IMG/VR virus record: IMGVR_UViG_3300013383_000017
Coordinates: 77,887 to 141,886 of that record
Length of the DNA: 64,000 nt
Reading direction: 5' to 3' (one strand)
From: a virus
Lineage: Duplodnaviria; Caudoviricetes
The position numbers and the translations under genes are program-made. Under the pieces are notes generated by a model, which did not search any database, was not told the DNA's origin, and saw only the letters and a program-made list of their open reading frames with translations. Shown in pieces: positions 36,798 through 64,000 of the stretch (positions within the stretch are counted from its first letter, which is position 1; the number at the start of each line of letters is the position of its first letter).

Positions 36798-37748
36798 CTT
36801 TTATACTCAATGTTTCCATTTATTTAATAAACATTTACTTATAATATCTTTTTGATCCTGAGTTAAAGAATCTATTACTTGTTATCTTACACTGGTATTT
36901 TGATATATTTCCACATTAAATCTTTGCTCCATTATATATCTTGCAAAGATTGCTTCTGCTTCAGTTTTATACCAACTAGAGTAATATCTTTTACCATTTA
37001 ATTGTAATTCCGCATGCCAACATGAAGGGTTTCTTTTTTCATTTTTATATACACCTTTATAAAGAGAGAGACTCTCTCTTTTTCTAGTATTATATAGTTG
37101 TTGCTTTCTATTTGATATGCGTAAATTAAATTTTCTATTATCAGTAGAATCAATATTAATATGATCAATTTCACCAATAGGATTTCCTAAAACTAATCTG
37201 TGAAAATAGATATGTTGTTTATGTTTTGTAGTGACTAAATAATATGATTTAATATTTTTACCTTTTATAATGCACTGCCATTTATATGCATATATTATAG
37301 GCAAATCTTCTTTATCAAATTTAAATGTTTTTAGCACATTACCAAATTGATTATAGGTATCTATTTCACAATAATGCTCTAAAACACGGACTTCATTTTT
37401 ATCAAATACAGTTCTAGAATTAGAGCACATAATTTTTCCATATTTTTTAACCTATAAGTAATGCTTAAAACACATATTACTATGTGAATTAGTGTGCATT
37501 TTTCCACACACTGGGCATATTTTTTCTTTCATATGTTAATATAAGTAATGTTTGAGAATAGACCATACCATCATCATTTTCAGATGCCTCTTGGTGGTCG
37601 TTGAGGGCTTCTATTTCTAGCTATCCCTGCTGATTATCCATTGTTGCATTCTTAAAATTTTTACACTTTGGTATTTAAGACTTTAGGAACTTCCAGCATA
37701 TTCGAGGTTTGCATTATATATTTCTATATATGGGGCTATTGTTAACTA
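36798..37748 (-). mobile_element. Group I intron in nrdD, just before the radical glycine (951 nt)
   Basis: P1 GGGU/GCCC with U.G; P10 CAAUA/UAUUG; P GAAUAUGCUGGAA, Q AAUCAGCAGG; P7 GACCA/UGGUC (compensated variant of GACUA/UAGUC); terminal G. Confidence 0.92.
36807..37532 (-). pseudogene. Intron-encoded HNH/AP2 homing endonuclease with two in-frame stops
   Basis: Frame runs MKEKICPVCG..KHYL*(TAG 37452-37454)VKKYG..VR*(TAA 36882-36884)QVIDSL..KWKH*; collinear with the intact polA-intron HNH. Confidence 0.8.
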
Positions 37749-40700
37749 ACCCTGTCATAAAGAGTTACTTTATCACTATTACATTTAGGGCATCTAGCAA
37801 ATGGTTTTTTTGCTATAAAACCACAATCATCACACTCACAATTTGGAACATTAAATGTAAAATAGTTACAGCCTACTTCTGCTGCAAATTGTAGTATTTT
37901 TTCATATTGTTCTTTATCTAAATGTTCAGATAAATTAATATGGCATGCTGATCCACCATCTAATTGATTGTTAGCAAATTGTGTACTATGTAATATTATT
38001 TTATCTGTTATACTAATTTCTGTATCATTAGGTTTAAATATATAAGAAGCATAAAGATTAGTATCTGTAGGTACCCAATATCCATCTTCTTTATCTCTAT
38101 TATATAGTTTAATAGCAGCAGATTCTGCAGGTACTAGTTCTGTATTAAACATAGTATTCTCTGTTTTGTGCTTAGTATTTTCTTCTTTAATAGTAGAGAA
38201 TATAAAAGAACAAAACTCTTTATAGTCTTTATTATTATTACACTGAATTCCAATAAATTCTGCAGCTTGATTTAAACCATTTATACCAATAGTTAAATAC
38301 TGTTTATCTAAGTTTATAAAACCTGCTTTATATGCATTAAGAAGATTATTATTATATGCCCAATGTAACATATCATTATAAGCAGTATGATAAAGATATA
38401 CTCTATTAAGAATATTAATAATACTATCTTTTATATTCTTCTTGAGTGTTTCTTTATTTTCATTTACCCATTCTGATGTTGGTTTTTCTCCTTTATTTTT
38501 ACCAGTAGAGTTTAAATAACAATCTTGAATTATCCTATTTAAATTTAATGTTATTACATTTTTACTTCCAGTCATTATACCAATCTGACCATTAGTAGTT
38601 GTAAACTGATTAGATGTAATAGAGTTTCTTAATCTACAATTATGTGTATTTAAACCATTAGCTAAAGTAAAATAAGGCATATTTTGATTACTACATTGAA
38701 AGCAATAAATATCTTTATTATAATCTATTTTTTCAATAGACTCAACCTTCCAATAAGCGGCACAGTCTGTATTTTTTAAATAAAATGTATCTTTAGTTAC
38801 TATTTCTAGACATTGAATTGGGGTGTTTTTATAATCTACAAAATCATAACTAACAGTCTGAATACCTAAAGAAACACATAAAGCTTCTACTTTAGTAAAC
38901 AAATCTTTATTTTTAGTAGAAAAGAAAGGATGATTATCATCTGTAACAGCAGTAAATAATCCTTCTATAATACCTCTTCTAAACTTTTCTTGTTGATAAA
39001 GACATTCTATTTTAAGAGAGTAGTTATTAACAAGAGTATCACTTGGTTCATACTTAATCCATCTTGAGATAAATTTATATATAGGGTTATCTTTGCATTC
39101 TACTATACATCCTCCCTTTGTTGGTTGTTTATATATAAAATTACCTAAAGTAGATAGAGTTTCTTTATATTTATTCCAAGTAACAACATCAAGATTAAAT
39201 GCTATTTCTTTATAAGCACTTTTATCTATTAATAGTGGTTTATCAAAAGTATCTCTTGTTAAACATAATCCTAACAATAAACCAAAAGCATATGATAAAT
39301 GATTATCTTCTGTTCCAAGTAATACCTTGTTATTAAACTCCAAATAATCAGTTGTTGTTAAGTCTTTTGTTTCTTTTTCTCCATCTAATGTAAGATTTAT
39401 ATGATTGTCGCTCATAATAAATTCTCTATTATTAGCAGTAACAACTTTATACATTTTTCTATTAGGTAATTTAATAACTTTACCTTTTATCCATTCTCCA
39501 TTATAAAGAGTTTCAATTTCATCTTTAATATCAAATTCCCATAGTTTCTTAAAAGGTGTTATATTTACTTTATTTTTGTATCTCCATATTATCTTAGTAT
39601 CACCATTAAAACAACAAGAACTAAGACTATCTACACTATTAGAATTATATATAAAGAATGAATTACCTTCAGCTAACTCTTTACATATAAAATCTTTAGT
39701 TTGTTTATCTTTAAAATCATTATTTTCAGTAAGACAAGCATAACTAACTACTGGGAAAGTAAGCATACATTTTAATCTTTCCTGATTGAACCAGTGGAGA
39801 AAATGTTGCTGTAGCCAATTAAAAGATTCCCAATGAGGTGCTGTTCCATCTGGAAAATAGAAACTACTAAACATACCCTCAAAGAAATACTTATCAAATA
39901 AAGAGAAGTTAGTAAAAGGACACTGAGCACCTCTACTACTTGCTACTTGATTAATAGAATAAACTATTTGTTGAAGGTATTGGTCTATTTGTTGTTCTAT
40001 TGTTTTCTTATTTTTTACAATATCAGAAGAGATAAGCTTATCAACATTAAGATAATAATCCTCTCCCCATTCTATTTCACAGAATCTATTAAAATACAAT
40101 AATACTTCTGGTGTAGCTACAGCACCTTTAACCTCTGAAGCCAATGCAAATATAAGATTAATATATATACCACAGAATGATTCAAGAGATTTAGGAACAG
40201 CTGATTTACCACCTAAATCTTTTAATCCATTTAATAGAAATGGATACATTGATACTGCCATACAGTATGGCATCATTACTTGTGAAGAAGAATCATGAGC
40301 ATAAAGAATTGATTTAAAGTCCTTTTCCATTTGTTTAATATCAAATGTTTCATCAATATTTCTTACCCATTTTTCCCAAATATACATATTAGTAATTTGA
40401 TTATCTTGCTTATGTATTTCTGAGTTTAATACTGCAACATTATGATTATTAACATTAGCATTATCATCTATTGTAGCATTAGCAGTATTATTTGAATTTA
40501 CAAAATTATTTATAAAATCTAATTTTTGTTTTGCAAATTCTCTATTAGTTTTATGATTATAATTATATATAATGTAAGCCTTTGCTACATCAGCATAATT
40601 AAAATGTATAATAGCTCTAATTACAGCATCTTGAATTTCTTCAGTTGTTTTACATCCTTCTGATAAAAATTCAGCATAAACTAATACATTTTTAGGACAC

Positions 40701-40801
40701 TCAATTCCCATTACTGCTATAAATGCAGAATTAAGTGCTTTTTTAATTTTATTAAAGTTATAATCTACTCTATTTCCAAATTTATTTTTTATTTTCCTCA
40801 T
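37749..40801 (-). CDS. nrdD: Class III anaerobic ribonucleotide reductase, exon 1 (ATP cone, intein-containing)
   Basis: N-terminal ATP cone, PYCMAV, SSC|intein|CRL, TIGING, ELVPAE, CDDC..CPKC Zn site, YDRV. Confidence 0.93.
38639..39613 (-). mobile_element. Intein (325 aa) in NrdD with a degenerate LAGLIDADG domain
   Basis: Begins CFNGDTKI; block B SDNHINLT; ends IYCFQC..FTLANGLNTHN followed by Cys+1. Removal restores SSCCRL. Confidence 0.93.
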
Positions 40802-42927: not shown

Positions 42928-43578
42928 TTATTTCCAATAAATTAATGGTTTATTATATTTAATATTAATACCATCTATCTGTTTAAATATATTAGGTAGC
43001 AATATATTATTTCTGGCACAATAAGATGGATGGGGTGAAAGTATTGTAAATTCTTTATCTATAATAGTAGAATATCTTTTACACCATTCTCCAAATAATA
43101 CAAATATAGTATGCGGATATTCACTTTTTATATTTATAATTAATTGTTTTGTAAATAAGTCCCAAATTTCTAAATTAGATGCTGGGTTATTTTCTATTAC
43201 TGTAAGTGCAGAGTTTAAAAGAAGGACCCCTTGTTTAGCTAAATAATGTAAATCTTTTTTACCTCCTATAGGAACATCATCATAGTATTTATCTATAGAA
43301 TCAAGTAAAACTTTTAACGATGGTGAAGTATATAATGATTCACTATTATTAGCAAAACAAAGTCCTGTAGCAATATCTTTTTGTGAATATGGGTCTTGCC
43401 CTAAAAAAACTATATTTAGTTTATCAATAGGACAATCAAAAAAGGCTTTAAATATATATTTTTTATTTGGTAAAATATTATATTTAAAAGATAAAGAATT
43501 AATATTATTTAAAGCCTTTTCTAATTCTTTTTTAGGTATTAAAGGTTCCCATTTTTCAAAAAATTGAGAGTAATTCAT
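42928..43578 (-). CDS. ung: Uracil-DNA glycosylase, family 1
   Basis: LGQDPY, ATGLCF, SPSL, QGVLLLNSALT, HPS motifs. Confidence 0.92.
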   Translation of the reverse strand: MNYSQFFEKWEPLIPKKELEKALNNINSLSFKYNILPNKKYIFKAFFDCPIDKLNIVFLGQDPYSQKDIATGLCFANNSESLYTSPSLKVLLDSIDKYYDDVPIGGKKDLHYLAKQGVLLLNSALTVIENNPASNLEIWDLFTKQLIINIKSEYPHTIFVLFGEWCKRYSTIIDKEFTILSPHPSYCARNNILLPNIFKQIDGINIKYNKPLIYWK

Positions 43579-44116
43579 CTATAACTTCATTAGGAGCTGT
43601 TTTTAATTTTAATTTTGCATATTCTGTTACATTTTCATTACTATCACATTCTGCTGGTATCATTTTTTCAAAGACACACTTAGAAAAATCATAAAAGAGT
43701 AGAGATAATCCATTGATTTCAATATCTTTTATATGTTGTACTAACCATTTTTCTAAAGGGTCATTAGAAGTTAAACATTCTTTATTTAATAAAAAAATAC
43801 CATGTGATGATATAAAAACAGGAATATTTTTATTATTATAAATAATACCATTATATGTGTAATATATAGTATCTTTTAATTTTGCTTTGCATTTATTAGT
43901 ATTTCTTGCTAATAATAACAGTAGACTTGATACATTTTTAACTACAATAGTTATACTGTGCCTATAATTAACTGTATAAATACATGGCATAGAAATAGGT
44001 AATGTATATTTATAATTACTAGTGTCTCTATTAATAATTATATAATAAGAATCAATATCAGCAGGTATTCTATTAATAGGATAGTTTAAGTATTTCCAAG
44101 TTTTAATTGATATCAT
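43556..44116 (-). CDS. Hypothetical protein directly downstream of the E1/ThiF gene
   Basis: 186 aa, starts 3 nt after the E1 stop; no recognisable motif. Confidence 0.6.
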   Translation of the reverse strand: MISIKTWKYLNYPINRIPADIDSYYIIINRDTSNYKYTLPISMPCIYTVNYRHSITIVVKNVSSLLLLLARNTNKCKAKLKDTIYYTYNGIIYNNKNIPVFISSHGIFLLNKECLTSNDPLEKWLVQHIKDIEINGLSLLFYDFSKCVFEKMIPAECDSNENVTEYAKLKLKTAPNEVIDELLSIF

Positions 44117-44119
44117 TAT

Positions 44120-44965
44120 TTATTTTTGTTTTAAAAACATTAATTCTGCATTATATTCTGTATAGAAAGGTAAGTCCCTTTCCATTAAAGGATTACAGTC
44201 AAGATTAGTAACATAATTTATAAAAAGATTAGTCATTAAGGAACCTATTAAAGTAGCAGTATAAGTTGTTTGTTTGTAACTACATATTGATTGTTCCGCT
44301 TCTGCATCATCAAATAACCACTTTTCCTTATACTCTTCTATTCTTTTTTCATCATGTGCAGGAATACAGAATATCTGTAGCTGCTCTGCTGCTAACCTTC
44401 CATCTATAAAAACACCACTAGTATTAGTAGTATCCCGTAACCAACTATGAAATGCTATTTTTCTAGTTTGCATATTATCTACACAACAAAATGTTATAGG
44501 ACATAACTTATAAATATCTGAAAATCTTTCACTATAACAATATAAGTCTACATTATCACTAAATAATACAATATTTAAGCGTAAAGCATCTACTTTATAT
44601 TTTCCTATATCATTTATTGTATACATTTGTCCAGATATATTTTCTTCTCCTACTTTATCTGGATCAAAACACCTTATTTTAGCTAGATTTAATCTACTTA
44701 GATTATAAACTAAATTACTACCTATTCCTCCACAACCAATAACAGCTACTTCCTTAGTTTTTACTGCTTCAAACCATATTGCTGAAGAAAATCTAGAGGT
44801 CTTTAAATCTATTTTTTCTTCATCAGTTTTTATTATTGGTAGTATTTTATTTTCTTCAGTTACTGTAATCTCTTCTTCTGTCACTGTTGGTGTGGTTGTT
44901 TGAAATAATTCACTATATTCTTCTGGTGATAGTATTTGTCTAAAAGTGTTTTCTATATTTTCCAT
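44120..44965 (-). CDS. E1-like ThiF/MoeB family adenylating enzyme
   Basis: VIGCGGIGS nucleotide-binding loop, FDPDKV..NISGQ, GKYKV, VDNMQTR, IDGR; candidate catalytic Cys in SICSYKQ. Confidence 0.9.
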   Translation of the reverse strand: MENIENTFRQILSPEEYSELFQTTTPTVTEEEITVTEENKILPIIKTDEEKIDLKTSRFSSAIWFEAVKTKEVAVIGCGGIGSNLVYNLSRLNLAKIRCFDPDKVGEENISGQMYTINDIGKYKVDALRLNIVLFSDNVDLYCYSERFSDIYKLCPITFCCVDNMQTRKIAFHSWLRDTTNTSGVFIDGRLAAEQLQIFCIPAHDEKRIEEYKEKWLFDDAEAEQSICSYKQTTYTATLIGSLMTNLFINYVTNLDCNPLMERDLPFYTEYNAELMFLKQK

Positions 44966-44981
44966 TTTATAAAATTATTAT

Positions 44982-46127
44982 TTAAAATTCATTTGAAAAC
45001 ATATAAGTATTCAGTATATCTAATATGTTATCAATATAATCATTAGATTTCATTGTTCTTAATAGTTTAGCTATATTATAAGCATATATACACATTATTG
45101 ATACTGTAATATCTTCATCTGAATTATCATAATTTATATACCTTTCTAGTTTATCATCTTCTATATGACTTAATATATAATCACAAAGTCTTTCTATGTA
45201 ATCAGTATAGGTAAAAATATCAGAAAAATAGTTATCAAGAGTTTTTACCATATCTTTTTCTACATATTTTCTAATATCATCAATATTATTGCACTGAGAA
45301 CATACATTTGCTGATACTAATTTATAAGTTACATCATATAAAGTATGTAAATCTATAGGAGCTTTACTATAAAAAGTACCTACATCTTTTAGCTCTACTT
45401 CTTCATCTTTCTCTTTTGAAAAATTTAATGATATAAATCCTTTATTGTCAGTGTCATGGTTATCAAACAAAGAAGGGTATATAGATTTATAATTTGTTAC
45501 TTTTTTAGCTGTTAGTTCCTTATATCTATCTAGAATATCTTTATTGATCGAATCATTCTTTCCTTCAATTACTATTTCTAGAGGAAACCACTCTATACCT
45601 GTTACTTTAGAGCAATTTATATTTTTAGTATCACTAAAATTATCATCAAAACACTTTGTAGTTACTGTTGATACTCCTGTAATAGTCGTTATTACTTGTC
45701 TTGTAATTCTTGCAGTATATTGTTCTGCATTATTTACAATCAAAGAAAGAAAATTACAAGTTTCTTTTCCTTCTTTTTCTAGTGTATCTTCATCTGTACC
45801 ACTAAAGAAAGTCTGCATCTGTTGATGTGAGTGAATTAATCCTATTTTACAGTCTAATAAATCTGAAAGTAACATATATTGTGTTATTTCAGCATCTACT
45901 TTGAATTCAGTAAAAGTAGCATTTCCAACATCAGATACTAGAAAATCTTCTACTGTTAATTTAATACCATTTTCAAAATTCTCTTTATAATTATAAAATA
46001 AATATCCAGACCATTCTGTTGTTGGGGATACTTTACACCATTGTTGTATCTTCTCAAAGACTTTTTTAGGTATAAATAATTGTTGCTTTACAGCACTTTT
46101 TGTTTTAAATAATATACTCTGTTCCAT
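44982..46127 (-). CDS. JAB/JAMM (MPN+) metalloprotease
   Basis: EWSGYL plus HSH-QQMQTFF-S-GT-D gives an exact E..HxHx7Sx2D motif. Confidence 0.88.
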   Translation of the reverse strand: MEQSILFKTKSAVKQQLFIPKKVFEKIQQWCKVSPTTEWSGYLFYNYKENFENGIKLTVEDFLVSDVGNATFTEFKVDAEITQYMLLSDLLDCKIGLIHSHQQMQTFFSGTDEDTLEKEGKETCNFLSLIVNNAEQYTARITRQVITTITGVSTVTTKCFDDNFSDTKNINCSKVTGIEWFPLEIVIEGKNDSINKDILDRYKELTAKKVTNYKSIYPSLFDNHDTDNKGFISLNFSKEKDEEVELKDVGTFYSKAPIDLHTLYDVTYKLVSANVCSQCNNIDDIRKYVEKDMVKTLDNYFSDIFTYTDYIERLCDYILSHIEDDKLERYINYDNSDEDITVSIMCIYAYNIAKLLRTMKSNDYIDNILDILNTYMFSNEF

Positions 46128-47151
46128 TGCTACTTATTGTTGCATTTAATAATTTTATTATACATACTACTATATAATTAAAAGCACTTTCTCCTAATCC
46201 ATATACTTTATTATATTCTTGATAACCATTATTTTTTATTTTAATGTGTACTGGTTCTCCTTTAAAATTAAAATAACTAATAGTTGGATATCTAGATATA
46301 ACATCTTCTAAACTAGAAAAAGGATAATAACTCACATTATTAGTTTCTGTTTTCCATAAAGTATTGTTTTTAAAAACTCTTATCGCCAAAAAACTTCTTT
46401 TTGTACTTAGAGGAATACTGGTAACTAAATTACACCATTCAATATAACTATTTGAAATGTCTATATAACAATCTGAAATAGATTTATTGAACCAAAATAT
46501 GCTACCATTATAAGAAAATGGGGTATCTTCTTTTTTAATATAATACCTAATAAAAGAATTTAATATTGATTTATCATTAGATGGTATATTATTTATTATA
46601 TTTGTTCTTAAGTTACTAAATAATATTGGTGTTAAGTGTTCTTTTTTATTTACATTACTTAAATATCTATAGGGTACACCTCGTAGACTTTCTGTTTTTA
46701 CATATAAAGATAACTCAAAACAAAATAGTTCCCATTTATCTAAATTATTATTTATCAACAATTCATATTGAGTTCTTTTTATAGGTCCTGTTCCTAGACA
46801 TGGTGTTTTCCATTCATACTTATATGGTATACCTTGTATGTGAGAATGACAATAGCTATGTTCTAATTGAGCTATAGTAAATGTAGTACCAGTCATAGTA
46901 AATAAATTAAATAATTTACCTTCTTTAGTAAGGGGTACTTGCACCCAAAGATCTTCCACATCTAGACTTTCATTATTTTCATTAGATATAGTTACTTTTG
47001 GAAAATGTACTATGATATTACAAAATTCAGTATTATCTGTATTTGTATCTTCTCTATTAGTAATATTTAAATCAGTATTTTCTTCTCCAAAAAAGTCTTT
47101 AAACACATTATAAACCTCGTTTACTTGTGTTGTGTTTTCATTGCTACTCAT
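46105..47151 (-). CDS. Prokaryotic E2-like (Ubl-conjugating) protein
   Basis: Beta-rich N-terminal domain with HSHI-x-PCLGTG, resembling the E2 HPN/HPH...C active site; sits between the Ubl and JAB genes. Confidence 0.65.
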   Translation of the reverse strand: MSSNENTTQVNEVYNVFKDFFGEENTDLNITNREDTNTDNTEFCNIIVHFPKVTISNENNESLDVEDLWVQVPLTKEGKLFNLFTMTGTTFTIAQLEHSYCHSHIQGIPYKYEWKTPCLGTGPIKRTQYELLINNNLDKWELFCFELSLYVKTESLRGVPYRYLSNVNKKEHLTPILFSNLRTNIINNIPSNDKSILNSFIRYYIKKEDTPFSYNGSIFWFNKSISDCYIDISNSYIEWCNLVTSIPLSTKRSFLAIRVFKNNTLWKTETNNVSYYPFSSLEDVISRYPTISYFNFKGEPVHIKIKNNGYQEYNKVYGLGESAFNYIVVCIIKLLNATISSNGTEYII

Positions 47152-47162
47152 TTTAATTAATT

Positions 47163-47189
47163 TATCCCCAAGAATATATCTTGGGGATA
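47163..47189. promoter_or_regulatory. Perfect 11-bp hairpin between the Ubl and E2 genes
   Basis: TATCCCCAAGA-atata-TCTTGGGGATA; no U tract in the sense (-) direction. Confidence 0.7.
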
Positions 47190-47199
47190 TTAAATAATA

Positions 47200-47784
47200 T
47201 TAAATTAAACCATTAAATAAAGCTAATAGGTCTTCTTCTTTATTAGATTCTTTTAGATACTCATTTAATGCATAGAATATAAATTGTTTTTCTCTCTCTG
47301 AGAATTCTTTATTATTCTTTACCCATGTCATAAATGAATTTATTGATGAATCTTCACTATTATGGCTACTTGCTATTTGTGTAGTTTTCCAACTATCTAT
47401 ATAACTTTCTAGAGTTTGAGTAGGAAGGTTAGTAAAGGAATAACCATAAATATCTTTAATAGGCTTATTTAAATTATTTGTAGTAATAAAATCATAACAT
47501 TCTGCCCTAGTAAGTCCAGAAGCAATCTTTTTCTGTGCTGTAGTTATTAGGAATACTAATTCATTAGTAGGATTACCATTCTTATCAGGTACATTTGTAG
47601 GAAGTATAGCATCATCTACAAATAGTTCTGTCTTTGATCTTCCTTCAAGAAATGCCATACCAGTACTTTCAATTCCTACATTTAAAAGTTCTGCTCTTAA
47701 TTCACCAAGTGTTGTAGCATTTGACATAAGTTCTTTTCTTGACTGTGTTGTGGATGAGATAACTGTAATTTTTCTTGTTTCCAT
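47200..47784 (-). CDS. Ubiquitin-like (beta-grasp) precursor protein with C-terminal extension
   Basis: Residues 1-90 follow a beta-grasp pattern (RKITVI..ELMSNATTLGELRAEL..MAFLEG..TEL..DAILP..LVFLI) and end in KKIASG; a 104-aa helical tail follows. First gene of the Ubl-E2-JAB-E1 run. Confidence 0.65.
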   Translation of the reverse strand: METRKITVISSTTQSRKELMSNATTLGELRAELLNVGIESTGMAFLEGRSKTELFVDDAILPTNVPDKNGNPTNELVFLITTAQKKIASGLTRAECYDFITTNNLNKPIKDIYGYSFTNLPTQTLESYIDSWKTTQIASSHNSEDSSINSFMTWVKNNKEFSEREKQFIFYALNEYLKESNKEEDLLALFNGLI

Positions 47785-47824: not shown

Positions 47825-48823
47825 TTAAAATGGTGTTGCCACCAATGTTGAAATAACTTCTTTTACTTTTTGTCTGTTAAAGTTTTTACATAAATCTGAT
47901 GGGTCTTTAGATTGATATTCTGTAGGTATTTCTATTTGATATAAATCAAATAAACTTGCTAACTTATTACCAAAGATATGACCATGATTTTCTGTAGATT
48001 TAAAATCATTATCATATAAAATAAAGACTTTATCAAATCTATTTTTTAACTGATTTATAACTTCTTTTTTTGGTATATAACCTTCTCCTTGTAAACTAAC
48101 TGATGGAATTAATGTATTTTCCCATATACATAGGGCATCTTTTCTTGAAGATGTTATAATTAGATTCTCCCCTTTTTCTGGTAGTTTAGTCCATAAATCC
48201 CATACTGAAGCATTATGTTTATTTAACCATTTTTGTTTAATATTAAACGGTTGATATATTTTGTAAGATAGTATATTATCTTTATTCTCTACATAAACAT
48301 AAGCATATTTATCAGCAGGGAAAATTAATTCTTTATTATTCTTATATAAAAATATATGAGATATAGGATATATATCTCCAAACTTTAACCAAGAAAGAGA
48401 AATACCATAACTTTCCCAGTAATCTAAATCATACTGTTTCCATTCTCTTGTTTTTACTTTTATAGAAGAAGATGTTATAATATGTTTTTTATTATAATAA
48501 GTTTCTTTTTTATATATAGTAGCATTATTATTTATTTTATATAAATCTTTATTTATTCTATTTAATACTTCAAAATAATTACAATTCCAAGTTAATTTAA
48601 ATAATTCTATTATATTACCATGATTATATGTTGCAAAATCTTTAAAAAGAATAGAATTATTACTATAAAAAATCCCTACAGAGGGTTTCTTATCTTCTCT
48701 GTAGGGAGCATTTATTAAACATGGAATAGTAGTTATATTAAAATAATAATGTAATAATGCTTCTTCTGAAACACTATCTAGAATGTCTATATATGAAACA
48801 CTACTATTTCCTTTACTTATCAT
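47825..48823 (-). CDS. DNA primase (crAss-type, TOPRIM)
   Basis: APYREDKKPS, FKDF, YKIYQP, IITSSRKD, QGEG, LYDND, KDPSD. Confidence 0.85.
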   Translation of the reverse strand: MISKGNSSVSYIDILDSVSEEALLHYYFNITTIPCLINAPYREDKKPSVGIFYSNNSILFKDFATYNHGNIIELFKLTWNCNYFEVLNRINKDLYKINNNATIYKKETYYNKKHIITSSSIKVKTREWKQYDLDYWESYGISLSWLKFGDIYPISHIFLYKNNKELIFPADKYAYVYVENKDNILSYKIYQPFNIKQKWLNKHNASVWDLWTKLPEKGENLIITSSRKDALCIWENTLIPSVSLQGEGYIPKKEVINQLKNRFDKVFILYDNDFKSTENHGHIFGNKLASLFDLYQIEIPTEYQSKDPSDLCKNFNRQKVKEVISTLVATPF

Positions 48824-57931: not shown

Positions 57932-58026
57932 TTTTTACAATTTGTATGATTTTTTGTAATCTTATTTTTGTGTATCTTTAGTTATATCTTTTACTTTACA
58001 TTTATTTACTTTCATTTATAATTTTT

Positions 58027-58293
58027 CTAATGAATAACTATTTTTCTAACTAACTCATAAATAACTCCTAGAATTAAAAAGAGTAAAAATAAAGGCCAAA
58101 TAAATGTACATGTAACTACCATATAGTAATTTGTATGAACACTTGAATTGATATAATCATACATTAAAAATAAAGTAGGTATATCTGGTTTATCAATGAA
58201 TTTGCGATCAACCTTTTCCCATACAATTGCTATAATTATACCTATTATAAAATATGATAAAATAATAATTAATACAAATAACCAAGTTGCCAT
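58027..58293 (-). CDS. Small membrane protein
   Basis: Two hydrophobic helices; WPLFL motif. Confidence 0.6.
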   Translation of the reverse strand: MATWLFVLIIILSYFIIGIIIAIVWEKVDRKFIDKPDIPTLFLMYDYINSSVHTNYYMVVTCTFIWPLFLLFLILGVIYELVRKIVIH

Positions 58294-58313
58294 AAAATTT
58301 ATAATTTTAATTA

Positions 58314-58507
58314 TTACACCCTAAACCAATTTGCTAAATCAGTATACCTCAGCACTCTTACTATATTCTGCGATTCATGTACTGCAGAAAATCTAGCAAA
58401 ATAGTTATATCTTCATAACTATTGAAAACATACCAAATAGAAATAGATAATTAGATGTCATTGTTTCAAATTTCACCCAATCTCCAATCAAATTCATTTA
58501 CTTTCAT
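58314..58507 (-). pseudogene. Frameshifted remnant of a Bacteroidetes phage gene
   Basis: Pieces MKVNE / IGDWVK / VHESQNIVRV..DLANWFRV* lie across broken frames; they resemble the ELMIGDWV...VHELQ family as I recall it. Confidence 0.4.
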
Positions 58508-58604
58508 CTGTTATTAAATCTATTATCTTCTGTATTTCCTGTTCTACATAGCACCAATCTTGCAGTGTGCCAACCATTAACCCACCTTGCCTTATTTTCA
58601 TTTC

Positions 58605-58874
58605 TTAACCCTCCGAATTCGGTGTGTTTAACCTCTCATATTTTAGTTCATCTATCTCTCCATCCCAAACCTTTCCATCTTTTGTTTCAATATTATCATC
58701 TTCGTTGTAATGCCAACAATTGGGGCAATACCACTTACCACCTCTTTCTGTCCAATCAGAGTTCTCTGCATTAAACTTTGCTCCATCTTTATCCGAAGTC
58801 CAATACTCATCGTTAAGTATTTCTCCACAACAATCACATCTCATATTGAAGAAGTATTCTCTTATTATTCCCAT
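58605..58874 (-). CDS. Zn-finger hypothetical protein
   Basis: CDCC...CPNC. Confidence 0.6.
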   Translation of the reverse strand: MGIIREYFFNMRCDCCGEILNDEYWTSDKDGAKFNAENSDWTERGGKWYCPNCWHYNEDDNIETKDGKVWDGEIDELKYERLNTPNSEG

Positions 58875-58939
58875 ATCCCTATTTCTTTAATTCTTCGATA
58901 AGTGCATCGGCTAATTTTATAGCACCTCTTGCAGTAGTG

Positions 58940-59158
58940 TTATAATTTTAATTCTATATATGGTAAGCCATCCAAACCCTTATATTCTTTTGCATCTTCA
59001 GACCAGTCTACTTCTTCCTTTATCATATCAATTAGATAATCCTTGTCATATCTTGCTATAAGTTGCATTATTACATCTCGTAATTCTGCATTGGTTAAAT
59101 CTTGTGCTCGGACATGGTCAATGATAAGAGTACCATTTATAATGCTTGTTATTTTCAT
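58940..59158 (-). CDS. Hypothetical protein (probable start MKITSI)
   Basis: ORF starts 2 nt after the upstream stop. Confidence 0.5.
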   Translation of the reverse strand: MKITSIINGTLIIDHVRAQDLTNAELRDVIMQLIARYDKDYLIDMIKEEVDWSEDAKEYKGLDGLPYIELKL

Positions 59159-59160
59159 AA

Positions 59161-59538
59161 TTATTCCTCCCATTCGATTTTAATCGTTCTAATATAAAGT
59201 TCGTTACTGGTTCGCCCTGCCCCAATTGCATCTTCTTCGGTTTTATAAATCACACACCCTAAATTTAGTTCCCTGCAATTTAATTTATACATATTCACCC
59301 ACCCCTCATGCTTTTCGGGTGCAAAGAAAAGGTCAAATATATTTTCCATACCTTCGCTATATTCTCCGCTTAAAGTATAAGTCTGAAAATCTTCTGTACC
59401 ATTATCATTCCTGATTAAGGCTATGATTGGATAATCGAACATCCTATCTGTGCATATTATCCTTGCGCTCCTGCCATCTCTCGTCACAACCTTGCGTGAC
59501 GGATTGGCTAAATACTCTTTTAAATTAAATTGTTTCAT
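59161..59538 (-). CDS. Conserved Bacteroidetes phage hypothetical protein
   Basis: MKQFNLKEYLANPSRKVVTRDGRSARIICTDR..DLFFAPEKHEGWVN family pattern. Confidence 0.65.
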   Translation of the reverse strand: MKQFNLKEYLANPSRKVVTRDGRSARIICTDRMFDYPIIALIRNDNGTEDFQTYTLSGEYSEGMENIFDLFFAPEKHEGWVNMYKLNCRELNLGCVIYKTEEDAIGAGRTSNELYIRTIKIEWEE

Positions 59539-59954
59539 ATCTTATATATTTCTCTGTTATTCAATCTGTTCTGTTCCCTCTTGTAGGCTTTAATTACATA
59601 GTCGGGAACACTATTCATAATTAATTCTGACTTGATTGGATGCGCTTCCTTTGCTGCTTGTAGCCACTCGTTGAAATTAAAGGATATTTTCAGTTTAAGT
59701 TTGGTGAGTTGCATAGATGCCTCCTCGTATGCCAATCTCGCATTTTCCTCGAATACAAGCACTTGCGCAGAATTGTATCTTATGCGGTCTTCTTTCTCGC
59801 TTTCTGACATCTCCTGCCAATAATCATATCCTACAAAATAAGCATACTTATCTCGTAGTTCGTTATATAACCCAAGTCGCATCCCCAACTCGGTCATAGC
59901 ATCGCCCACTGCCTTGCAGTCGACTACTATCAATCTTTGTTCTTCTGCTGTCAT
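59535..59954 (-). CDS. Hypothetical protein
   Basis: 139 aa, ATGA-coupled at both ends. Confidence 0.6.
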   Translation of the reverse strand: MTAEEQRLIVVDCKAVGDAMTELGMRLGLYNELRDKYAYFVGYDYWQEMSESEKEDRIRYNSAQVLVFEENARLAYEEASMQLTKLKLKISFNFNEWLQAAKEAHPIKSELIMNSVPDYVIKAYKREQNRLNNREIYKI

Positions 59955-60232
59955 CGTTCATTGCATATATTATCCATCATCTTCTCCCCCTCTTTTTCGC
60001 CAAGTAGCATAAAAAACTCTACATCCTTTGTGTTTGTCCTTATGCGTATTGAACGAGAATGCGTCCCTCCAATAACCTCTAACTGCCCCACTCCGAACTC
60101 ATGCGCCATATCTACAAGTCCACAAGAGTACACATACCAGTGTCGGCTACACTCATCTTCCGTGTCATGCACACCATTACATACTAATTCAGTGTGCCCT
60201 TTTTCTTCTTTAAAAATCCAATAATGTTTCAT
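59951..60232 (-). CDS. Hypothetical protein (probable start MKHYWIF)
   Basis: ATG follows an A-rich leader; the longer listed ORF overlaps another gene. Confidence 0.5.
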   Translation of the reverse strand: MKHYWIFKEEKGHTELVCNGVHDTEDECSRHWYVYSCGLVDMAHEFGVGQLEVIGGTHSRSIRIRTNTKDVEFFMLLGEKEGEKMMDNICNER

Positions 60233-60309
60233 TTTTTTCTTTTTTTGAGTTGTCAAAGGTTTTTTGACAACTGGTTTTCTGTCGCTTTTGTTCGTGCTTT
60301 GCAGAGCCT

Positions 60310-60483
60310 TTATTCTTCGAACCAACACAAATCCTGCAAGTATTCCAAATACTCTGGGTTGTGCTCCCATACTACACCCGTTCCACCGCAGAGGGTGCAT
60401 TCTATATATTTGCCGTCCTCATCCTGCCCCTTATATCCCGTGCCCTTACAGATAGGGCAATCAATATATAAATCCTCTTCCAT
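60310..60483 (-). CDS. Small protein with DnaJ-type Zn-finger repeats
   Basis: CPICKGTG...CTLCGGTG. Confidence 0.6.
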   Translation of the reverse strand: MEEDLYIDCPICKGTGYKGQDEDGKYIECTLCGGTGVVWEHNPEYLEYLQDLCWFEE

Positions 60484-60683
60484 TATTTTTTCCCAATTAA
60501 TTTCCAACTCTCTTCGTCGAGTGGGATGCAACATCCGTCGAAACAGATAGTATTATCTATATCCCCTATCCGCCTTACTTCGTGGTAGATTGTCCCATTG
60601 CAATTCATCCTCTCGACATATATACCCGTTCCCCACATATCGTAGGTAGTGTTACGGCATACTACTATATCTCCTGCTTGCAT
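60483..60683 (-). CDS. Hypothetical protein
   Basis: 66 aa, coupled ORF. Confidence 0.5.
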   Translation of the reverse strand: MQAGDIVVCRNTTYDMWGTGIYVERMNCNGTIYHEVRRIGDIDNTICFDGCCIPLDEESWKLIGKK

Positions 60684-60904
60684 CTCTTAATCCTTTGTGC
60701 GACCTCCCAAGTGCCGCAGATTATATAATATACTACCATCGGTATCAATACGCAGATACCGAACATACGCAAATAGGACACGGGCACATCACACACAAAT
60801 ATGTGACATACTCCGCATCCTACTATTCCTAATACTCCTATTCCTCCGAGTACTACCATACTCCAGAATAGAACATTTAATAGAATTTCTTTAATCTTTT
60901 TCAT
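60665..60904 (-). CDS. Small membrane protein
   Basis: Two hydrophobic helices; directly downstream of a promoter. Confidence 0.55.
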   Translation of the reverse strand: MKKIKEILLNVLFWSMVVLGGIGVLGIVGCGVCHIFVCDVPVSYLRMFGICVLIPMVVYYIICGTWEVAQRIKRCKQEI

Positions 60905-60926
60905 ACCTTTTATGTTTTTGTTTCTG

Positions 60927-60958
60927 CAAAGGTAGAAATAAAATTTGAATTGTGCAAA
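60927..60958 (-). promoter_or_regulatory. Bacteroidetes housekeeping-sigma promoter
   Basis: TTTG-N20-TACCTTTG, exact consensus. Confidence 0.75.
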
Positions 60959-60964
60959 TATTTT

Positions 60965-61450
60965 TTACCAATTTTTTAATCTTGCATATTCTGCAATAAG
61001 CAAACTATCTCTGTCTGAATGGTTTACATCGTTAAAAATCGGATACAATCTATTGCCAATTTGTAGGCTCATTGACTTCAATTCGTCCTTTTCAGTCCCT
61101 CTGGGCAGAATTTCCTTCTGCCATTCCTTGCTATCGATATAGCGCAAAGGCAATCCCAATTCCTCTATCAATATCAGTTCCGCTTCGTGGCATCGCAATG
61201 CCACCGCACTCGCTATAAACCTCGTAGGATTGACCATTGGACGCTCCATAACCACTAACACCTCCGCGCCTTTATAAGGCTCTAAAATCGCCTTTAAAGT
61301 GCCATAATCGAGCCGTGTTATCATCTTCTTTGCTTTCGTGTAGTCCTGCTCTTTTTTTACGGGTATCTTGCCAAAGGCTTTCTCCTGCTCGGATAGGATT
61401 GTATAAGTCCCCGTAACTCCGTTATCAATCCCGATGTAAGTCTTACTCAT
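60965..61450 (-). CDS. RuvC-like Holliday junction resolvase
   Basis: YIGIDNGVTG, VMERP, KEWQK, DRDSLLIA. Confidence 0.75.
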   Translation of the reverse strand: MSKTYIGIDNGVTGTYTILSEQEKAFGKIPVKKEQDYTKAKKMITRLDYGTLKAILEPYKGAEVLVVMERPMVNPTRFIASAVALRCHEAELILIEELGLPLRYIDSKEWQKEILPRGTEKDELKSMSLQIGNRLYPIFNDVNHSDRDSLLIAEYARLKNW

Positions 61451-62072
61451 CTTCTTCTCTATTTAGATATGTTACCACCTTGTTTGCAAGCGCAAAACAA
61501 GTATTTTTAAGTTTTTCCGCGTTATTGAGGTTACAGACAAAATCCACATTCAAGTCCCTTTCATAACTATTCGCCATCTTAATCAAGCACTTACGCATAT
61601 ATTTGAGGTGCATATTCGTTTCCCCCTTTCTGTTAGGCAAATAGACATAGAGGTTAGTCCACAACAACCCTGCAATCTGACATAGCAAGTCACATAGTAA
61701 GATGGATGCAAGCACATCCCTTGCGCTTTCTCCATAGGCATCTAATGCCGTGTAGAGTTCCATTTTGCACATCTCGATATAGTTATGCAATTCAGTCCCA
61801 AGATTGTCCATCTCGTCCATCATAAAATCCGCTTCGTCCATTGTAAGCGTGCGGAACAAGTCCGAATTAAACGCTTTATACTCTTTTGCAAAGTCGGTAA
61901 GATACTTCCGCGCTTCGTGCTTAAACTCCCTGTTTTTTATCTCCTTACAATAGATTTGATATGCTATATCCATAAGGTAGTAAGGCGCAAGTAATGCAGT
62001 TGCATCCCCCTTTACTTCCATCTGCTTGTACTGTCGGAAGTACTTAATCGCTATATCCTTGTATTGTTTCAT
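61443..62072 (-). CDS. Hypothetical protein
   Basis: 209 aa, coupled ORF. Confidence 0.6.
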   Translation of the reverse strand: MKQYKDIAIKYFRQYKQMEVKGDATALLAPYYLMDIAYQIYCKEIKNREFKHEARKYLTDFAKEYKAFNSDLFRTLTMDEADFMMDEMDNLGTELHNYIEMCKMELYTALDAYGESARDVLASILLCDLLCQIAGLLWTNLYVYLPNRKGETNMHLKYMRKCLIKMANSYERDLNVDFVCNLNNAEKLKNTCFALANKVVTYLNREEDE

Positions 62073-63358
62073 ATTTCAACAAAATGTGTATAGTTTTCAT
62101 TTCCCCTGCAAGCAATTTTCAGTCCTCCACCTGCTCCTGCTCTATTCTTCTGCAAGTACATATTAACCTCGTTAGTATTCTCGCCGAACTCATTGCGTAC
62201 CCTTTCAAGCATTATTACGATATCTGCATCCTGCTCGATTGAGCCACTATCCCGCAAGTCTTGTAGTTGTGGTGTTCTGTTAGCCGCATCGCGGTTCAAC
62301 TGGCATAGTAACACGATAGGTATTTTTAAACTTTTGGCAAGTTTCTTCAATCGCTTCGTCATCTCCGTCACCTGCCTATATAGGTTCTTGTCGCTATCGC
62401 TTGTGCTCATCAGTTGCAGATAATCGATATAGACGATATCGCACCTCCCTTTGAGGGCGTTGAGCGTTATTGCAGTGCAGACATCATCCGCAGTTGCTTG
62501 CGCATCGTCAAACCACATCTTGCCGTTGTTGAGCATTTGCTTCGCCTTGTCGAAATTCTCCCAATCTACTTTGCCTGCTGCTATATCTCTTTTGTCAAGC
62601 AATCCCGTACTCGATAGCAACCTTTCTCCAAGTTCGATATTGGTCATCTCCAAAGACAAGATTAAAGCATTATAGCCGGCTATTGTCGCCGCTCTTGCCA
62701 TCTGCATCATAAACATCGATTTTCCGACCGATGGGCGTGCCGCCAAGACTACCAAGTTGCCTGCCGTAAATCCGCCGTAGGTAAACCAATTTAAAGTGCT
62801 AAAACCTGTTGTTATATGGGTTTCTGTTCCCTTGCTGACTTTCTCTGCTATCTCGTTAATCACCTCGCCTACACTTCGGGTTGTTTCGGAGTTCATATCT
62901 TGTTCGAGTGTGCGTGTCAGCGCAGTGGGTGCATCCATTACCTCCGATAGTTGCGTGGCTTCATTGCTTGCTATTTGGAGGTTTCGTATGGCTTCAAAAT
63001 ATAACCTACGGCGTTGCATCACTACTTGCAGTGTGGTTATATGGCTTCGCACTTGCATATCTGTGCCATATCCGATTTGAGATGCAATTTGATTAAGGAA
63101 ATAGGTCTTATCTACCCTTGCACATACGGATACCATATCGATAGTTTCGCGGGCATCGTACATTGCTCGTAATACTTTGTAGACTTCTTTCGCATCTCTG
63201 TCGTAGAATAGTCCCTCACATAGGATATTTAGGTTTTCGGGTATTAATTCGGGACTTGTGATTAACTCGAATAATAGTTTCCTTTCGAGGTTCTCCTCGT
63301 AGGGAATAGGGAACTCTGCAAGTTGCAGAGGCTCTCTAAAATCTGTGTTTCTTTTCAT
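62069..63358 (-). CDS. dnaB: Canonical replicative DNA helicase
   Basis: AARPSVGKS, SLEM, IDYLQL, LCQLNR, DLRDSGSIEQDAD, QKNR. Confidence 0.93.
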   Translation of the reverse strand: MKRNTDFREPLQLAEFPIPYEENLERKLLFELITSPELIPENLNILCEGLFYDRDAKEVYKVLRAMYDARETIDMVSVCARVDKTYFLNQIASQIGYGTDMQVRSHITTLQVVMQRRRLYFEAIRNLQIASNEATQLSEVMDAPTALTRTLEQDMNSETTRSVGEVINEIAEKVSKGTETHITTGFSTLNWFTYGGFTAGNLVVLAARPSVGKSMFMMQMARAATIAGYNALILSLEMTNIELGERLLSSTGLLDKRDIAAGKVDWENFDKAKQMLNNGKMWFDDAQATADDVCTAITLNALKGRCDIVYIDYLQLMSTSDSDKNLYRQVTEMTKRLKKLAKSLKIPIVLLCQLNRDAANRTPQLQDLRDSGSIEQDADIVIMLERVRNEFGENTNEVNMYLQKNRAGAGGGLKIACRGNENYTHFVEI

Positions 63359-64000
63359 ATTCTTCTATGTATTTTTTCGCATCCATTGTAGGCACTTCTG
63401 AATATTGCGCCTGTGGTTGTGTTTGGGGTTGTCTTGTATATCTTGCCTTACGTTCTTCATCGTTGCGCTTCCAAGTTTGCAGTCTTCTTTTTAGTTCCCA
63501 TGTTTTTTCTTTCTCAAACCGCATTTTTTTACCGCCGAACTCTGTCCAGTAATCGCAGAATGCTCGTATCATTCTTTCTCCATATTCGGCTTCGTACATT
63601 TCGGCTTCCGCTCGGAACTTATCTTCGCGTTCTTCCCTTGTGAGAGAGGGGGGTGCTGGCGTTGTATGGGGGGAGAGAGTCACTTCGTGACTATTTTTGT
63701 TTTTAAGGTTGATACCTTCGGTTTTAGTACTACCCTTTACTACATTGGTAGGATTGGTCAGTGGGTAGTTTGAACTTTTTTCTTTGCTAAAACTATTTAT
63801 AGTTTTAGTTTCTTTATTATATATATTATTATTATATATATTATTATCTTTTGTTGGTTGTTTTAACCAATCGTCAGTTGAATTAACCACTGGACAGTTA
63901 TTTTCACCAAAGAGGGATAGTGTTTTTTCGGTTAGGGCATACCAATTTGTTTTTAGCATTTTGTTATTGCTATAATTCCCCTTAATTATATAATTACCCT
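63336..64000 (-). CDS. Phage replication initiator-like protein, 5'-truncated by the window edge
   Basis: Frame is open to the window end (GNYIIKGNYSNNKMLKTNWYALT); C-terminal FCDYWTE..KMRFEKEKTW..RRLQTW domain; directly upstream of dnaB. Confidence 0.65.
   Translation of the reverse strand, partial: GNYIIKGNYSNNKMLKTNWYALTEKTLSLFGENNCPVVNSTDDWLKQPTKDNNIYNNNIYNKETKTINSFSKEKSSNYPLTNPTNVVKGSTKTEGINLKNKNSHEVTLSPHTTPAPPSLTREEREDKFRAEAEMYEAEYGERMIRAFCDYWTEFGGKKMRFEKEKTWELKRRLQTWKRNDEERKARYTRQPQTQPQAQYSEVPTMDAKKYIEEYEKKHRF

Follow-up and report, generated by a model that had tools for sequence, protein, structure and literature searches.

Accounts of ubiquitin-like (Ubl) protein conjugation in prokaryotes have hitherto concerned cells, where it is in most cases directed against phages (Bil and the type II cyclic oligonucleotide-based anti-phage signalling system, CBASS) and in one case of unclear role (Bub). 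The papers on Bub and Bil treat these pathways as bacterial (Ye et al. 2024; PMC10557695). Type I Bub (formerly called 6E.1) makes its Ubl as a pre-protein, which a JAB domain cleaves behind a conserved Gly; a minimal E1 that forms a homodimer then passes the Ubl on to a diverged E2 (Ye et al. 2024, bioRxiv 10.1101/2024.11.21.623953). We analysed a stretch of 64,000 nucleotides (positions 77,887 to 141,886) of the virus record IMGVR_UViG_3300013383_000017 (Duplodnaviria; Caudoviricetes), hereafter called the window. It contains a compact cassette that encodes a Ubl precursor, a protein resembling E2 enzymes, a JAB/JAMM peptidase and a ThiF-family E1.

We are highly confident that the Ubl, the JAMM enzyme and the E1 form a processing and activation module. 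The cassette as a whole is probably a phage-run pathway for Ubl conjugation to proteins, expressed together with the replication genes, where conjugation to targets is the part that we infer. The initial annotation of this locus, made from the sequence alone, knew of no characterised complete version from a gut phage, and we likewise found no description of the phage cassette in the literature searched.

The cassette would work most like Type I Bub, while its gene layout resembles that of Bil. As in Bub, the Ubl is made as a pre-protein that would be cut by a JAB/JAMM enzyme after a conserved Gly; the E1 is a minimal, single-domain enzyme of the UBA5/ThiF type with an invariant crossover-loop Tyr; the predicted E2 is a diverged UBC-fold protein with an invariant Ser and His close together; and there is no E3, with one additional gene attached. 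In contrast to Bub, which carries BubAB (Ubl-E2) and BubCD (JAB-E1) fusions, the phage and its relatives use separate open reading frames (ORFs), and the Gly of the phage Ubl precedes a helical domain instead of an E2. Cys228 of the phage E1 and Cys118 of the E2-like protein are invariant, whereas the Bub enzymes lack Cys and form oxyesters via Tyr and Ser-x-His. Given the invariant Y212 and S103-H104, oxyester chemistry could also operate in the phage cassette. The phage Ubl and E2-like proteins further differ in having no sequence similarity to any described family, and the carrier is a lytic-type phage, not a bacterial defence island. DUF6527 (BubE) matched no cassette protein at E up to 0.1, a search that a very divergent relative could escape.

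The likeness to Bil (BilA-BilB-BilC-BilD; Chambers et al., PMC10557695; as summarised by Ye et al. 2024) lies in the separate genes for Ubl, E2, JAB and E1, in the Cys-based chemistry to be expected, and in the lack of an E3, the E2 being thought to choose the target. The Bil E1, according to that summary, has tandem domains and a Cys domain. The phage E1 is one adenylation domain of 281 residues with no inserted domain, and therefore cannot be a Bil-type E1. Bil, moreover, is a bacterial defence against phages in which phage proteins are tagged, whereas here the phage owns the system. Type II CBASS (Cap2/Cap3) shares E1 and E2 chemistry and a JAB deconjugase, and the E2 domain of Cap2 is among the structural matches of the phage E2-like protein. 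However, Cap2 is an E2-E1 fusion that acts on a CD-NTase and not on a Ubl, and the phage has separate genes and no CD-NTase. Curated models agree: the '6A-MBL cap2_3' model matched only the Rossmann part of the E1 (32 bits against a cut-off of 320), the PRTRC_ThiF model TIGR03736 gave the E1 49.7 bits against a cut-off of 144.75, and no other PRTRC model matched any cassette protein in an NCBIfam scan. The cassette thus belongs to none of Bub, Bil, PRTRC, CBASS and ThiF/MoeB: Bub is set aside because there are no fusions, no DUF6527 and a Cys in both enzymes, and PRTRC, CBASS and ThiF/MoeB because of the curated scores.

The Ubl precursor has 194 residues (47200-47784), with the motif KKIASG at residues 85-90 (47515-47532) followed by 104 more residues. 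The AlphaFold model of its N-terminal part shows a strand-strand-helix-strand-strand beta-grasp, confident over residues 1-82 (predicted local distance difference test, pLDDT, >90 for residues 1-80), which leads into a flexible tail of low pLDDT at residues 85-89. Foldseek searches of the PDB returned UBX, SUMO1, ubiquitin and the bacterial Ubl 8tyx. In a VIA search, which is independent of Foldseek, 50 of 50 rows were ubiquitin-like, with Z up to 9.0 and a root-mean-square deviation of 2.1 Å over 72 residues. The protein accordingly has the fold and flexible tail of a beta-grasp modifier, and the tail would end in Gly if Gly90 is the mature C-terminus. No scanned member of its family matched a Pfam or ThiS family, and the sequence profile of the family found nothing meaningful in the PDB. 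We found 93 homologues and aligned 27 of them. The first 90 residues are conserved in this alignment, with I87, S89 and G90 invariant (consensus KKIxSG), and the residue directly after G90 is variable. Invariant residues inside a flexible, low-pLDDT linker, followed by a variable position, are the pattern expected of a processing and activation site.

The C-terminal extension of the precursor, which is presumed to be cut off by the JAB peptidase, is predicted to be helical between residues 93 and 190 (pLDDT 91-95 over residues 91-130 of the AlphaFold model). The family alignment shows its first part to be conserved, its middle variable and its C-terminal motif YSxxEIxxMF again conserved; the acidic end of the window precursor, EEDLLALFNGLI, fits this consensus loosely. 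Neither a family nor a solved relative of the extension was found in Pfam and PDB profile searches. The acidic-hydrophobic motif at residues ~182-194 (47200-47240) recalls the C-terminal protein-binding tips of replication proteins of the single-stranded DNA-binding (SSB) type. The C-terminal fragment, once freed, may itself be functional.

The JAB peptidase displays the zinc motif HSHQQMQTFFSGTD (45792-45833), an exact HxHx7SxxD (HSHx7SGTD), and an upstream catalytic Glu, E38 (46014-46016), within EWSG; it therefore has both the Glu and the HxHx7SxxD by which JAB/JAMM (MPN+) enzymes are recognised. E38, H99, S100, H101, S109 and D112 are invariant in 10 sequences that share 21-32% identity, that of Flavobacterium phage FpV4 included. 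The match to Pfam Prok-JAB (E 1.8e-4, 21.8 bits) falls just below the cut-off of 25, and the five top matches of the family profile in the PDB are all JAMM enzymes, among them PfJAMM1 (E 0.039), Rpn11-like and CSN5, and these alignments cover the motif. Conservation extends over the C-terminal 230 residues, which have no family assignment.

The E1 is identified by sequence as well: it scores 60.2 bits against Pfam ThiF (PF00899; cut-off 28.1, E 2.1e-16), with a single ThiF domain at residues 66-262, and its family comprises 1026 clusters at E <= 1e-10. Its motifs are an Arg58 finger, GCGGIG (44720-44737), DNMQTR (44462-44479), Tyr212 (44330-44332) and Cys228 (44282-44284), so that the features that define the ThiF/E1 superfamily (GxGxxG, an Arg finger, a Mg-binding Asp and a Pfam score above threshold) are all in place. 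R58, G77, G79, G82, D101, D103, K124, D163, N164 and R168 are invariant in 29 sequences, as are D188, R190, Y212, D220, C228, K231 and T233, of which Y212 and C228 lie in the crossover region. The invariant set includes every ATP and Mg residue. The best solved relative is UBA5, a minimal homodimeric E1 (6.5e-16), followed by canonical E1s, MccB/PaaA (~1e-12), ThiF, Cap2 and BubCD. Cys228 falls in the column of E. coli ThiF Cys184 in one MAFFT L-INS-i alignment; hhalign and HMMER, applied to the E1 with ThiF and UBA5, stop short of the crossover loop. Cys184 of ThiF is reportedly the residue that bonds covalently to ThiS (Xi et al. 2001). Ye et al. 2024 (bioRxiv 10.1101/2024.11.21.623953) locate the catalytic Cys of UBA5 at this same end of the loop. 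The UBA5-UFM1 pathway differs from the cassette in using UFC1 and an E3.

Much of the initial annotation is borne out by these results. It had proposed a beta-grasp Ubl, which the AlphaFold model, Foldseek and VIA all support, ending at a Gly90 that proves to be invariant in the 27 homologues; a JAMM protease with an exact HxHx7SxxD, which is conserved across the family; and a ThiF/E1 with a candidate catalytic Cys, whose motifs are likewise conserved family-wide and whose Cys228 is invariant. Rechecking the ORF translations placed each motif at the coordinates that had been given for it.

The genes are tightly linked. Five of them are packed on the minus strand between the primase and uracil-DNA glycosylase (UDG) genes (Table 1), with intergenic gaps of -23 to +48 nt. 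The initial annotation had counted four: its interval spanned the 186-residue gene at 43556-44116, which its text omitted. The virus has relatives among Crassvirales of the crAss001 type, with which its E1 shares ~44% identity. The order primase, Ubl, E2-like, JAB, E1, fifth gene, UDG is kept in crAss001 (gp80 to gp74, with the cassette itself being gp79-gp75), in bajarodcaudo virus 1 and in 8 IMG/VR contigs. The cassette order is also kept in DAC15, and FpV4 (gp53-gp50) has the same cassette with UDG on the opposite side. The primase adjoins the cassette in all related loci. Protein identity across the syntenic relatives is just 21-47%, and the sharing of genes and order at such identity is far more than chance.

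Table 1 Positions in the window of the cassette genes and of the two genes that flank them.
Feature	Position	Strand	Remarks
DnaG-type primase	47825..48823	-	PHROG 12622 DNA primase, 3.5e-50; upstream neighbour, context only
Ubl domain of precursor, residues 1-90	47515..47784	-	Beta-grasp model; tail KKIASG, Gly90 the presumed mature C-terminus
Ubl precursor C-terminal extension, residues 91-194 and stop	47200..47514	-	Helical domain, variable linker, acidic end
E2-like protein, 348 residues	46105..47151	-	N-terminal UBC/UEV/RWD-like domain (predicted) and C-terminal domain, residues 176-348
JAB/JAMM (MPN+) metallopeptidase, 381 residues	44982..46127	-	Catalytic domain ~residues 15-150 and conserved C-terminal domain
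Minimal single-domain E1 (ThiF family), 281 residues	44120..44965	-	Pfam ThiF
Fifth cassette gene, 186 residues	43556..44116	-	Begins 3 nt past E1 stop; 23-nt overlap with ung
Uracil-DNA glycosylase (UDG, ung)	42928..43578	-	Pfam UDG, 42.4 bits against cut-off 24.3; downstream neighbour, context only

The E2-like protein is the least secure of the four assignments; we consider it fairly likely that it performs the E2 step. Its N-terminal region, ~residues 1-170 (46642-47151), is predicted to be a UBC/UEV/RWD-like domain: the model (pLDDT 85.5) shows an N-terminal helix, four strands, a long loop at residues 98-122 and two helices, followed by a second domain at residues 176-348. VIA matched it to the Tsg101 UEV domain (Z 5.8), a ubiquitin-conjugating enzyme (5.3), Ubc9 (5.2), the Cap2 E2 domain (4.9) and BubB (4.2), and by our own count ~36 of the 50 best rows are E2, UEV or RWD proteins, each aligned over residues 1 to ~170. 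Z values below 8 can reflect a common arrangement, and those obtained here, 4-5.8, are in the 'middling' range, which makes a UBC-like fold of this domain probable rather than proven.

The family of the E2-like protein is very large (3098 representatives of 50%-identity clusters match at E <= 0.001), and its conservation resembles that of an active site. In 196 sequences, N57, E58, Y100, H102, S103, H104, C118 and G120, as well as G122, P123, T127, E146, E154, S155, G158 and P160, are 98-100% conserved, and the motifs YxHSH and PCxG reach 100%. In the window these motifs read YCHSH (46840-46854) and PCLGTGP (46783-46803, with Cys118 at 46798-46800); YxHSH lies 14 residues ahead of the invariant PC118xG, both within loop 98-122 of the predicted model. 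The FpV4 protein retains YxHSH, the Cys and ESxxGxPY. The canonical E2 active-site pattern is Y-H-P-N ... C-L-D, which Y-x-H-S-H ... P-C-L-G resembles, and Cys118 is therefore favoured as the acceptor. The Bub E2 has an invariant Ser and a nearby His without a Cys (Ye et al. 2024, bioRxiv 10.1101/2024.11.21.623953). Because Ser103-His104 and Cys118 are all invariant in the phage family, the catalytic residue could be either Cys118 or Ser103/His104. The E2 call of the initial annotation, which had rested on HSHI...PCLG and gene context, gains a UBC-like predicted fold and a fully conserved HSH and Cys118, the latter invariant in the 196 relatives, but Z stays at 4-5.8 and both Foldseek and the sequence profiles are silent.

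Folds, motifs, conservation and gene linkage were computed, and from them we infer cleavage, adenylation, thioesters, transfer and target identity, as follows. The JAMM enzyme would cut the 194-residue pro-Ubl after Ser89-Gly90, which would yield a 90-residue beta-grasp Ubl and a helical fragment of ~100 residues. The minimal, probably homodimeric ThiF/UBA5-like E1 would bind the Ubl and adenylate Gly90 with ATP and Mg, and the activated Ubl would move to the crossover-loop Cys228 as a thioester. From there it would pass to the UBC-fold protein, most likely to Cys118, with YxHSH in the role of the E2 HPN motif, and end on a target lysine. Because no E3 is present, the C-terminal domain of the E2-like protein would select the target. 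The JAMM enzyme may also strip conjugates. The targets put forward in the initial annotation, host defence proteins or the phage replisome, are speculative.

Several observations weigh against a conjugation pathway of this kind, most of them at the E2 step. The fold match is weak (Z 4-5.8), and a Foldseek search of the PDB with the E2-like model gave nothing at E <= 0.001, the best match being at 0.15. The protein has no Pfam, NCBIfam or PDB-sequence match, and the Prok-E2_D (PF14460) hidden Markov model, run against the complete record, found nothing at E up to 10, nor did it match any of 32 members of the E2-like family. The set of invariant polar residues (N57, E58, H102, S103, H104, E146, E154, S155) is larger than in a plain E2, so that the protein could be a metal-binding enzyme or act via Ser/His as BubB does. 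Outside this protein, the Ubl ends in Ser-Gly instead of Gly-Gly, and the crossover-loop Tyr212 of the E1 is invariant as in BubCD, which leaves thioester chemistry less than certain. Pfam scans across members of the Ubl and E2-like families revealed no shared family. From the E2-like protein, ESM Atlas gave weak, consistent leads below threshold to viral Prok-E2_D clusters (score 0.77, TM 0.45).

The evidence for an E2 being structural and modest, a serious rival is a Ubl activation module that works independently of an E2, as in archaeal SAMP/UbaA/JAMM1 or TtuB, in which the 348-residue protein would not transfer the Ubl but serve as its target or as an adaptor, or would be a separate enzyme of the Zn or Ser/His kind on a UBC-like scaffold. 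Assignment is strong for Ubl, JAB and E1, while the E2 call rests on the Z values given above; the best solved relative of the JAB enzyme, PfJAMM1, comes from an archaeal system in which SAMP is used without an E2; and the rich invariant set of His, Ser, Cys and Glu residues in the E2-like protein could bind metal. We nevertheless regard this reading as unlikely. In all the genomes that we examined, a gene for an E2-like protein with active-site-like conservation sits fixed between those for the Ubl and the JAB enzyme; the four strands of this protein and a loop with a Cys after strand 4 give the predicted model the appearance of an E2, and the E2 domains of Cap2 and BubB are among its structural matches. 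A complex prediction of E1(50-281), Ubl(1-90) and E2-like(1-175) gave no answer (score 0.00, run without controls) and is evidence neither way. The archaeal SAMP-UbaA-JAMM1 and the UBA5-UFM1 systems also differ from the cassette in that neither is viral.

We give little credence to a sulfur-carrier pathway, in which a ThiS/MoaD/CysO-like Ubl would be trimmed by the JAMM enzyme, adenylated by the ThiF-like enzyme and turned into a thiocarboxylate, the sulfur donor for a nucleotide, tRNA, DNA or cofactor made during infection. A triad of Ubl, JAMM and ThiF is the layout of known sulfur-carrier systems too: the cassette has its beta-grasp carrier and ThiF-like adenylase in common with ThiF-ThiS, CysO-Mec+ and QbsE-QbsD, and JAMM trimming in common with some of them. 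The reading can further draw on the GenBank name of the E1 homologues, 'thiamine biosynthesis protein', on the alignment of Cys228 with ThiF Cys184, on the location of the cassette among nucleotide-metabolism genes, and on the NCBIfam model that matches the E1 best, which is that of ThiF (3.4e-18). That match, however, reaches 66.1 bits against a cut-off of 159, and the E1 stays far under every NCBIfam cut-off for ThiF, MoeB and MoeZ. The E1 has no rhodanese domain and, in an alignment with E. coli ThiF, lacks the ThiF zinc cysteines. The sulfur-transfer partners of the known systems are missing as well: the initial annotation had seen no thiamine, molybdenum-cofactor or sulfur-relay genes nearby, and a search of the whole 141.9-kb record returned no ThiS, ThiG, MoaE or rhodanese match. 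The tail is Ser-Gly and not Gly-Gly, and the pathway would have no role for the UBC-like protein that is always linked to the other genes. The label 'thiamine biosynthesis protein' on these phage E1 genes is misleading.

Even less persuasive to us is a device primarily for counter-defence, with the JAMM enzyme freeing phage or host proteins from conjugates of host Ubls (Bil-type) or CD-NTases (CBASS type II), while the Ubl, E1 and E2 of the phage serve as decoys or competitors. Bil systems are described as attaching tags to the structural proteins of phages, tags that JAB enzymes take off again. A deconjugase would benefit a phage. But a lone deconjugase needs no co-inherited pro-Ubl with an invariant activation site, no intact E1 and no E2-like protein, and nothing in our analysis ties the JAB enzyme to host Ubls. 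A counter-defence role for the JAB enzyme is compatible with a phage-run conjugation pathway and not opposed to it. Peptide chemistry of the MccB/PaaA kind, in which an E1-like enzyme turns the C-terminus of a small protein into a nucleotide-linked or cyclised product, deserves hardly any weight: both enzymes are among the solved relatives of the E1, but UBA5 and canonical E1s score better, the substrate is a folded beta-grasp and not a short peptide, and JAB and UBC-like partners suit Ubl systems.

The slot of the fifth gene is filled in all these loci, by gp75 in crAss001, XHH63413 in bajarodcaudo virus 1 and ORFs of 232-270 residues in the IMG/VR loci, and the fifth-slot proteins of the relatives form a family (mutual E down to 1e-33). 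The 186-residue protein of the window matches the profile of this family weakly, in the core motif YYxxxGII alone (hhalign E 0.035, probability 1.5%), and FpV4 gp49 shows a similarly weak, short motif match (hhalign E 0.14, probability <2%). The window protein has no Pfam, NCBIfam or PHROG match, and ESM Atlas gave nothing usable for it, the UDG-named clusters at 0.85 falling below the trust level.

Of the records in the GenBank phage collection, 80 carry the E1, 73 the E2-like protein, 52 the JAB enzyme and 45 the Ubl. Cultured or named carriers include crAss001, DAC15, Kehishuvirus, Kolpuevirus, the PhiCrAssBcn isolates and the FpV4 group; p-crAssphage is not among the matches listed in these searches. 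The Ubl and E2-like genes are called 'hypothetical protein' or are unannotated among the matches listed.

More distant loci contain parts of such a module. In a 44.8-kb IMG/VR phage contig (L012, 5070-8259), a gene for a Prok-JAB-like protein overlaps a ThiF/E1 gene and is followed by one for a PcfJ-like protein. The proteins of 558 and 161 residues encoded upstream have no recognisable kinship with either the Ubl or the E2-like family. The jumbo Xanthomonas phage PhiXhv-12 (L016:1265-5515) encodes a related E1 (28% identity) near topoisomerase genes, with a hypothetical protein of 892 residues on one side and small ORFs of 70 and 243 residues on the other. This locus may be another viral Ubl-type module.

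The genes around the cassette show features of their own. The UDG protein matches NCBIfam UDG models with E down to 5e-37, yet stays under their curated cut-offs. In 5 related IMG/VR contigs (L003:7688-8621; L005, L008, L010 and L011), the UDG gene beside the cassette is split by an insert of ~930 nt, in which Rfam identifies a group I intron (RF00028, 83 bits, E 2e-21) and Pfam a LAGLIDADG homing endonuclease (3e-33); the UDG gene of the window is uninterrupted. A ribonucleotide reductase ORF of 1019 residues (37742-40801, minus strand) contains an intein-like insert, SSC|CFNGDTKIIW ... NTHN|CRLRNS. The window has ~26% G+C, and the value climbs from ~0.25 to 0.34-0.42 at its right end (58000-64000). 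The virus record is 141.9 kb in total; most of the related contigs and complete phage records in this analysis have ~90-102 kb.

A Ubl conjugation pathway in this cassette would be owned by a virus, within a phage group that ranks among the most abundant in the human gut; the cassette is conserved as far as phages of the fish pathogen Flavobacterium. The pathway is directly testable because crAss001, DAC15 and FpV4 are in culture. We put it at even odds that crAss-like and related Bacteroidota phages own a complete Ubl cascade, consisting of a pro-Ubl, a JAMM maturase, a minimal Cys-E1 and a Cys-E2 of a novel family, with which they tag host or phage proteins during replication, be it for takeover or for blunting Ubl-based host defence. 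The cassette would add two families that databases do not recognise, the Ubl and the E2, the E2-like family alone amounting to >3000 50%-identity clusters. It also bears on the evolution of minimal E1-E2 systems, as the Bub-type Tyr and the UBA5/ThiF-type Cys are both retained in its E1. If such a cascade is real, it would be the first case of a prokaryotic virus owning a Ubl conjugation system, and, if it conjugates, these phages use ubiquitin-like tagging as a tool of infection.

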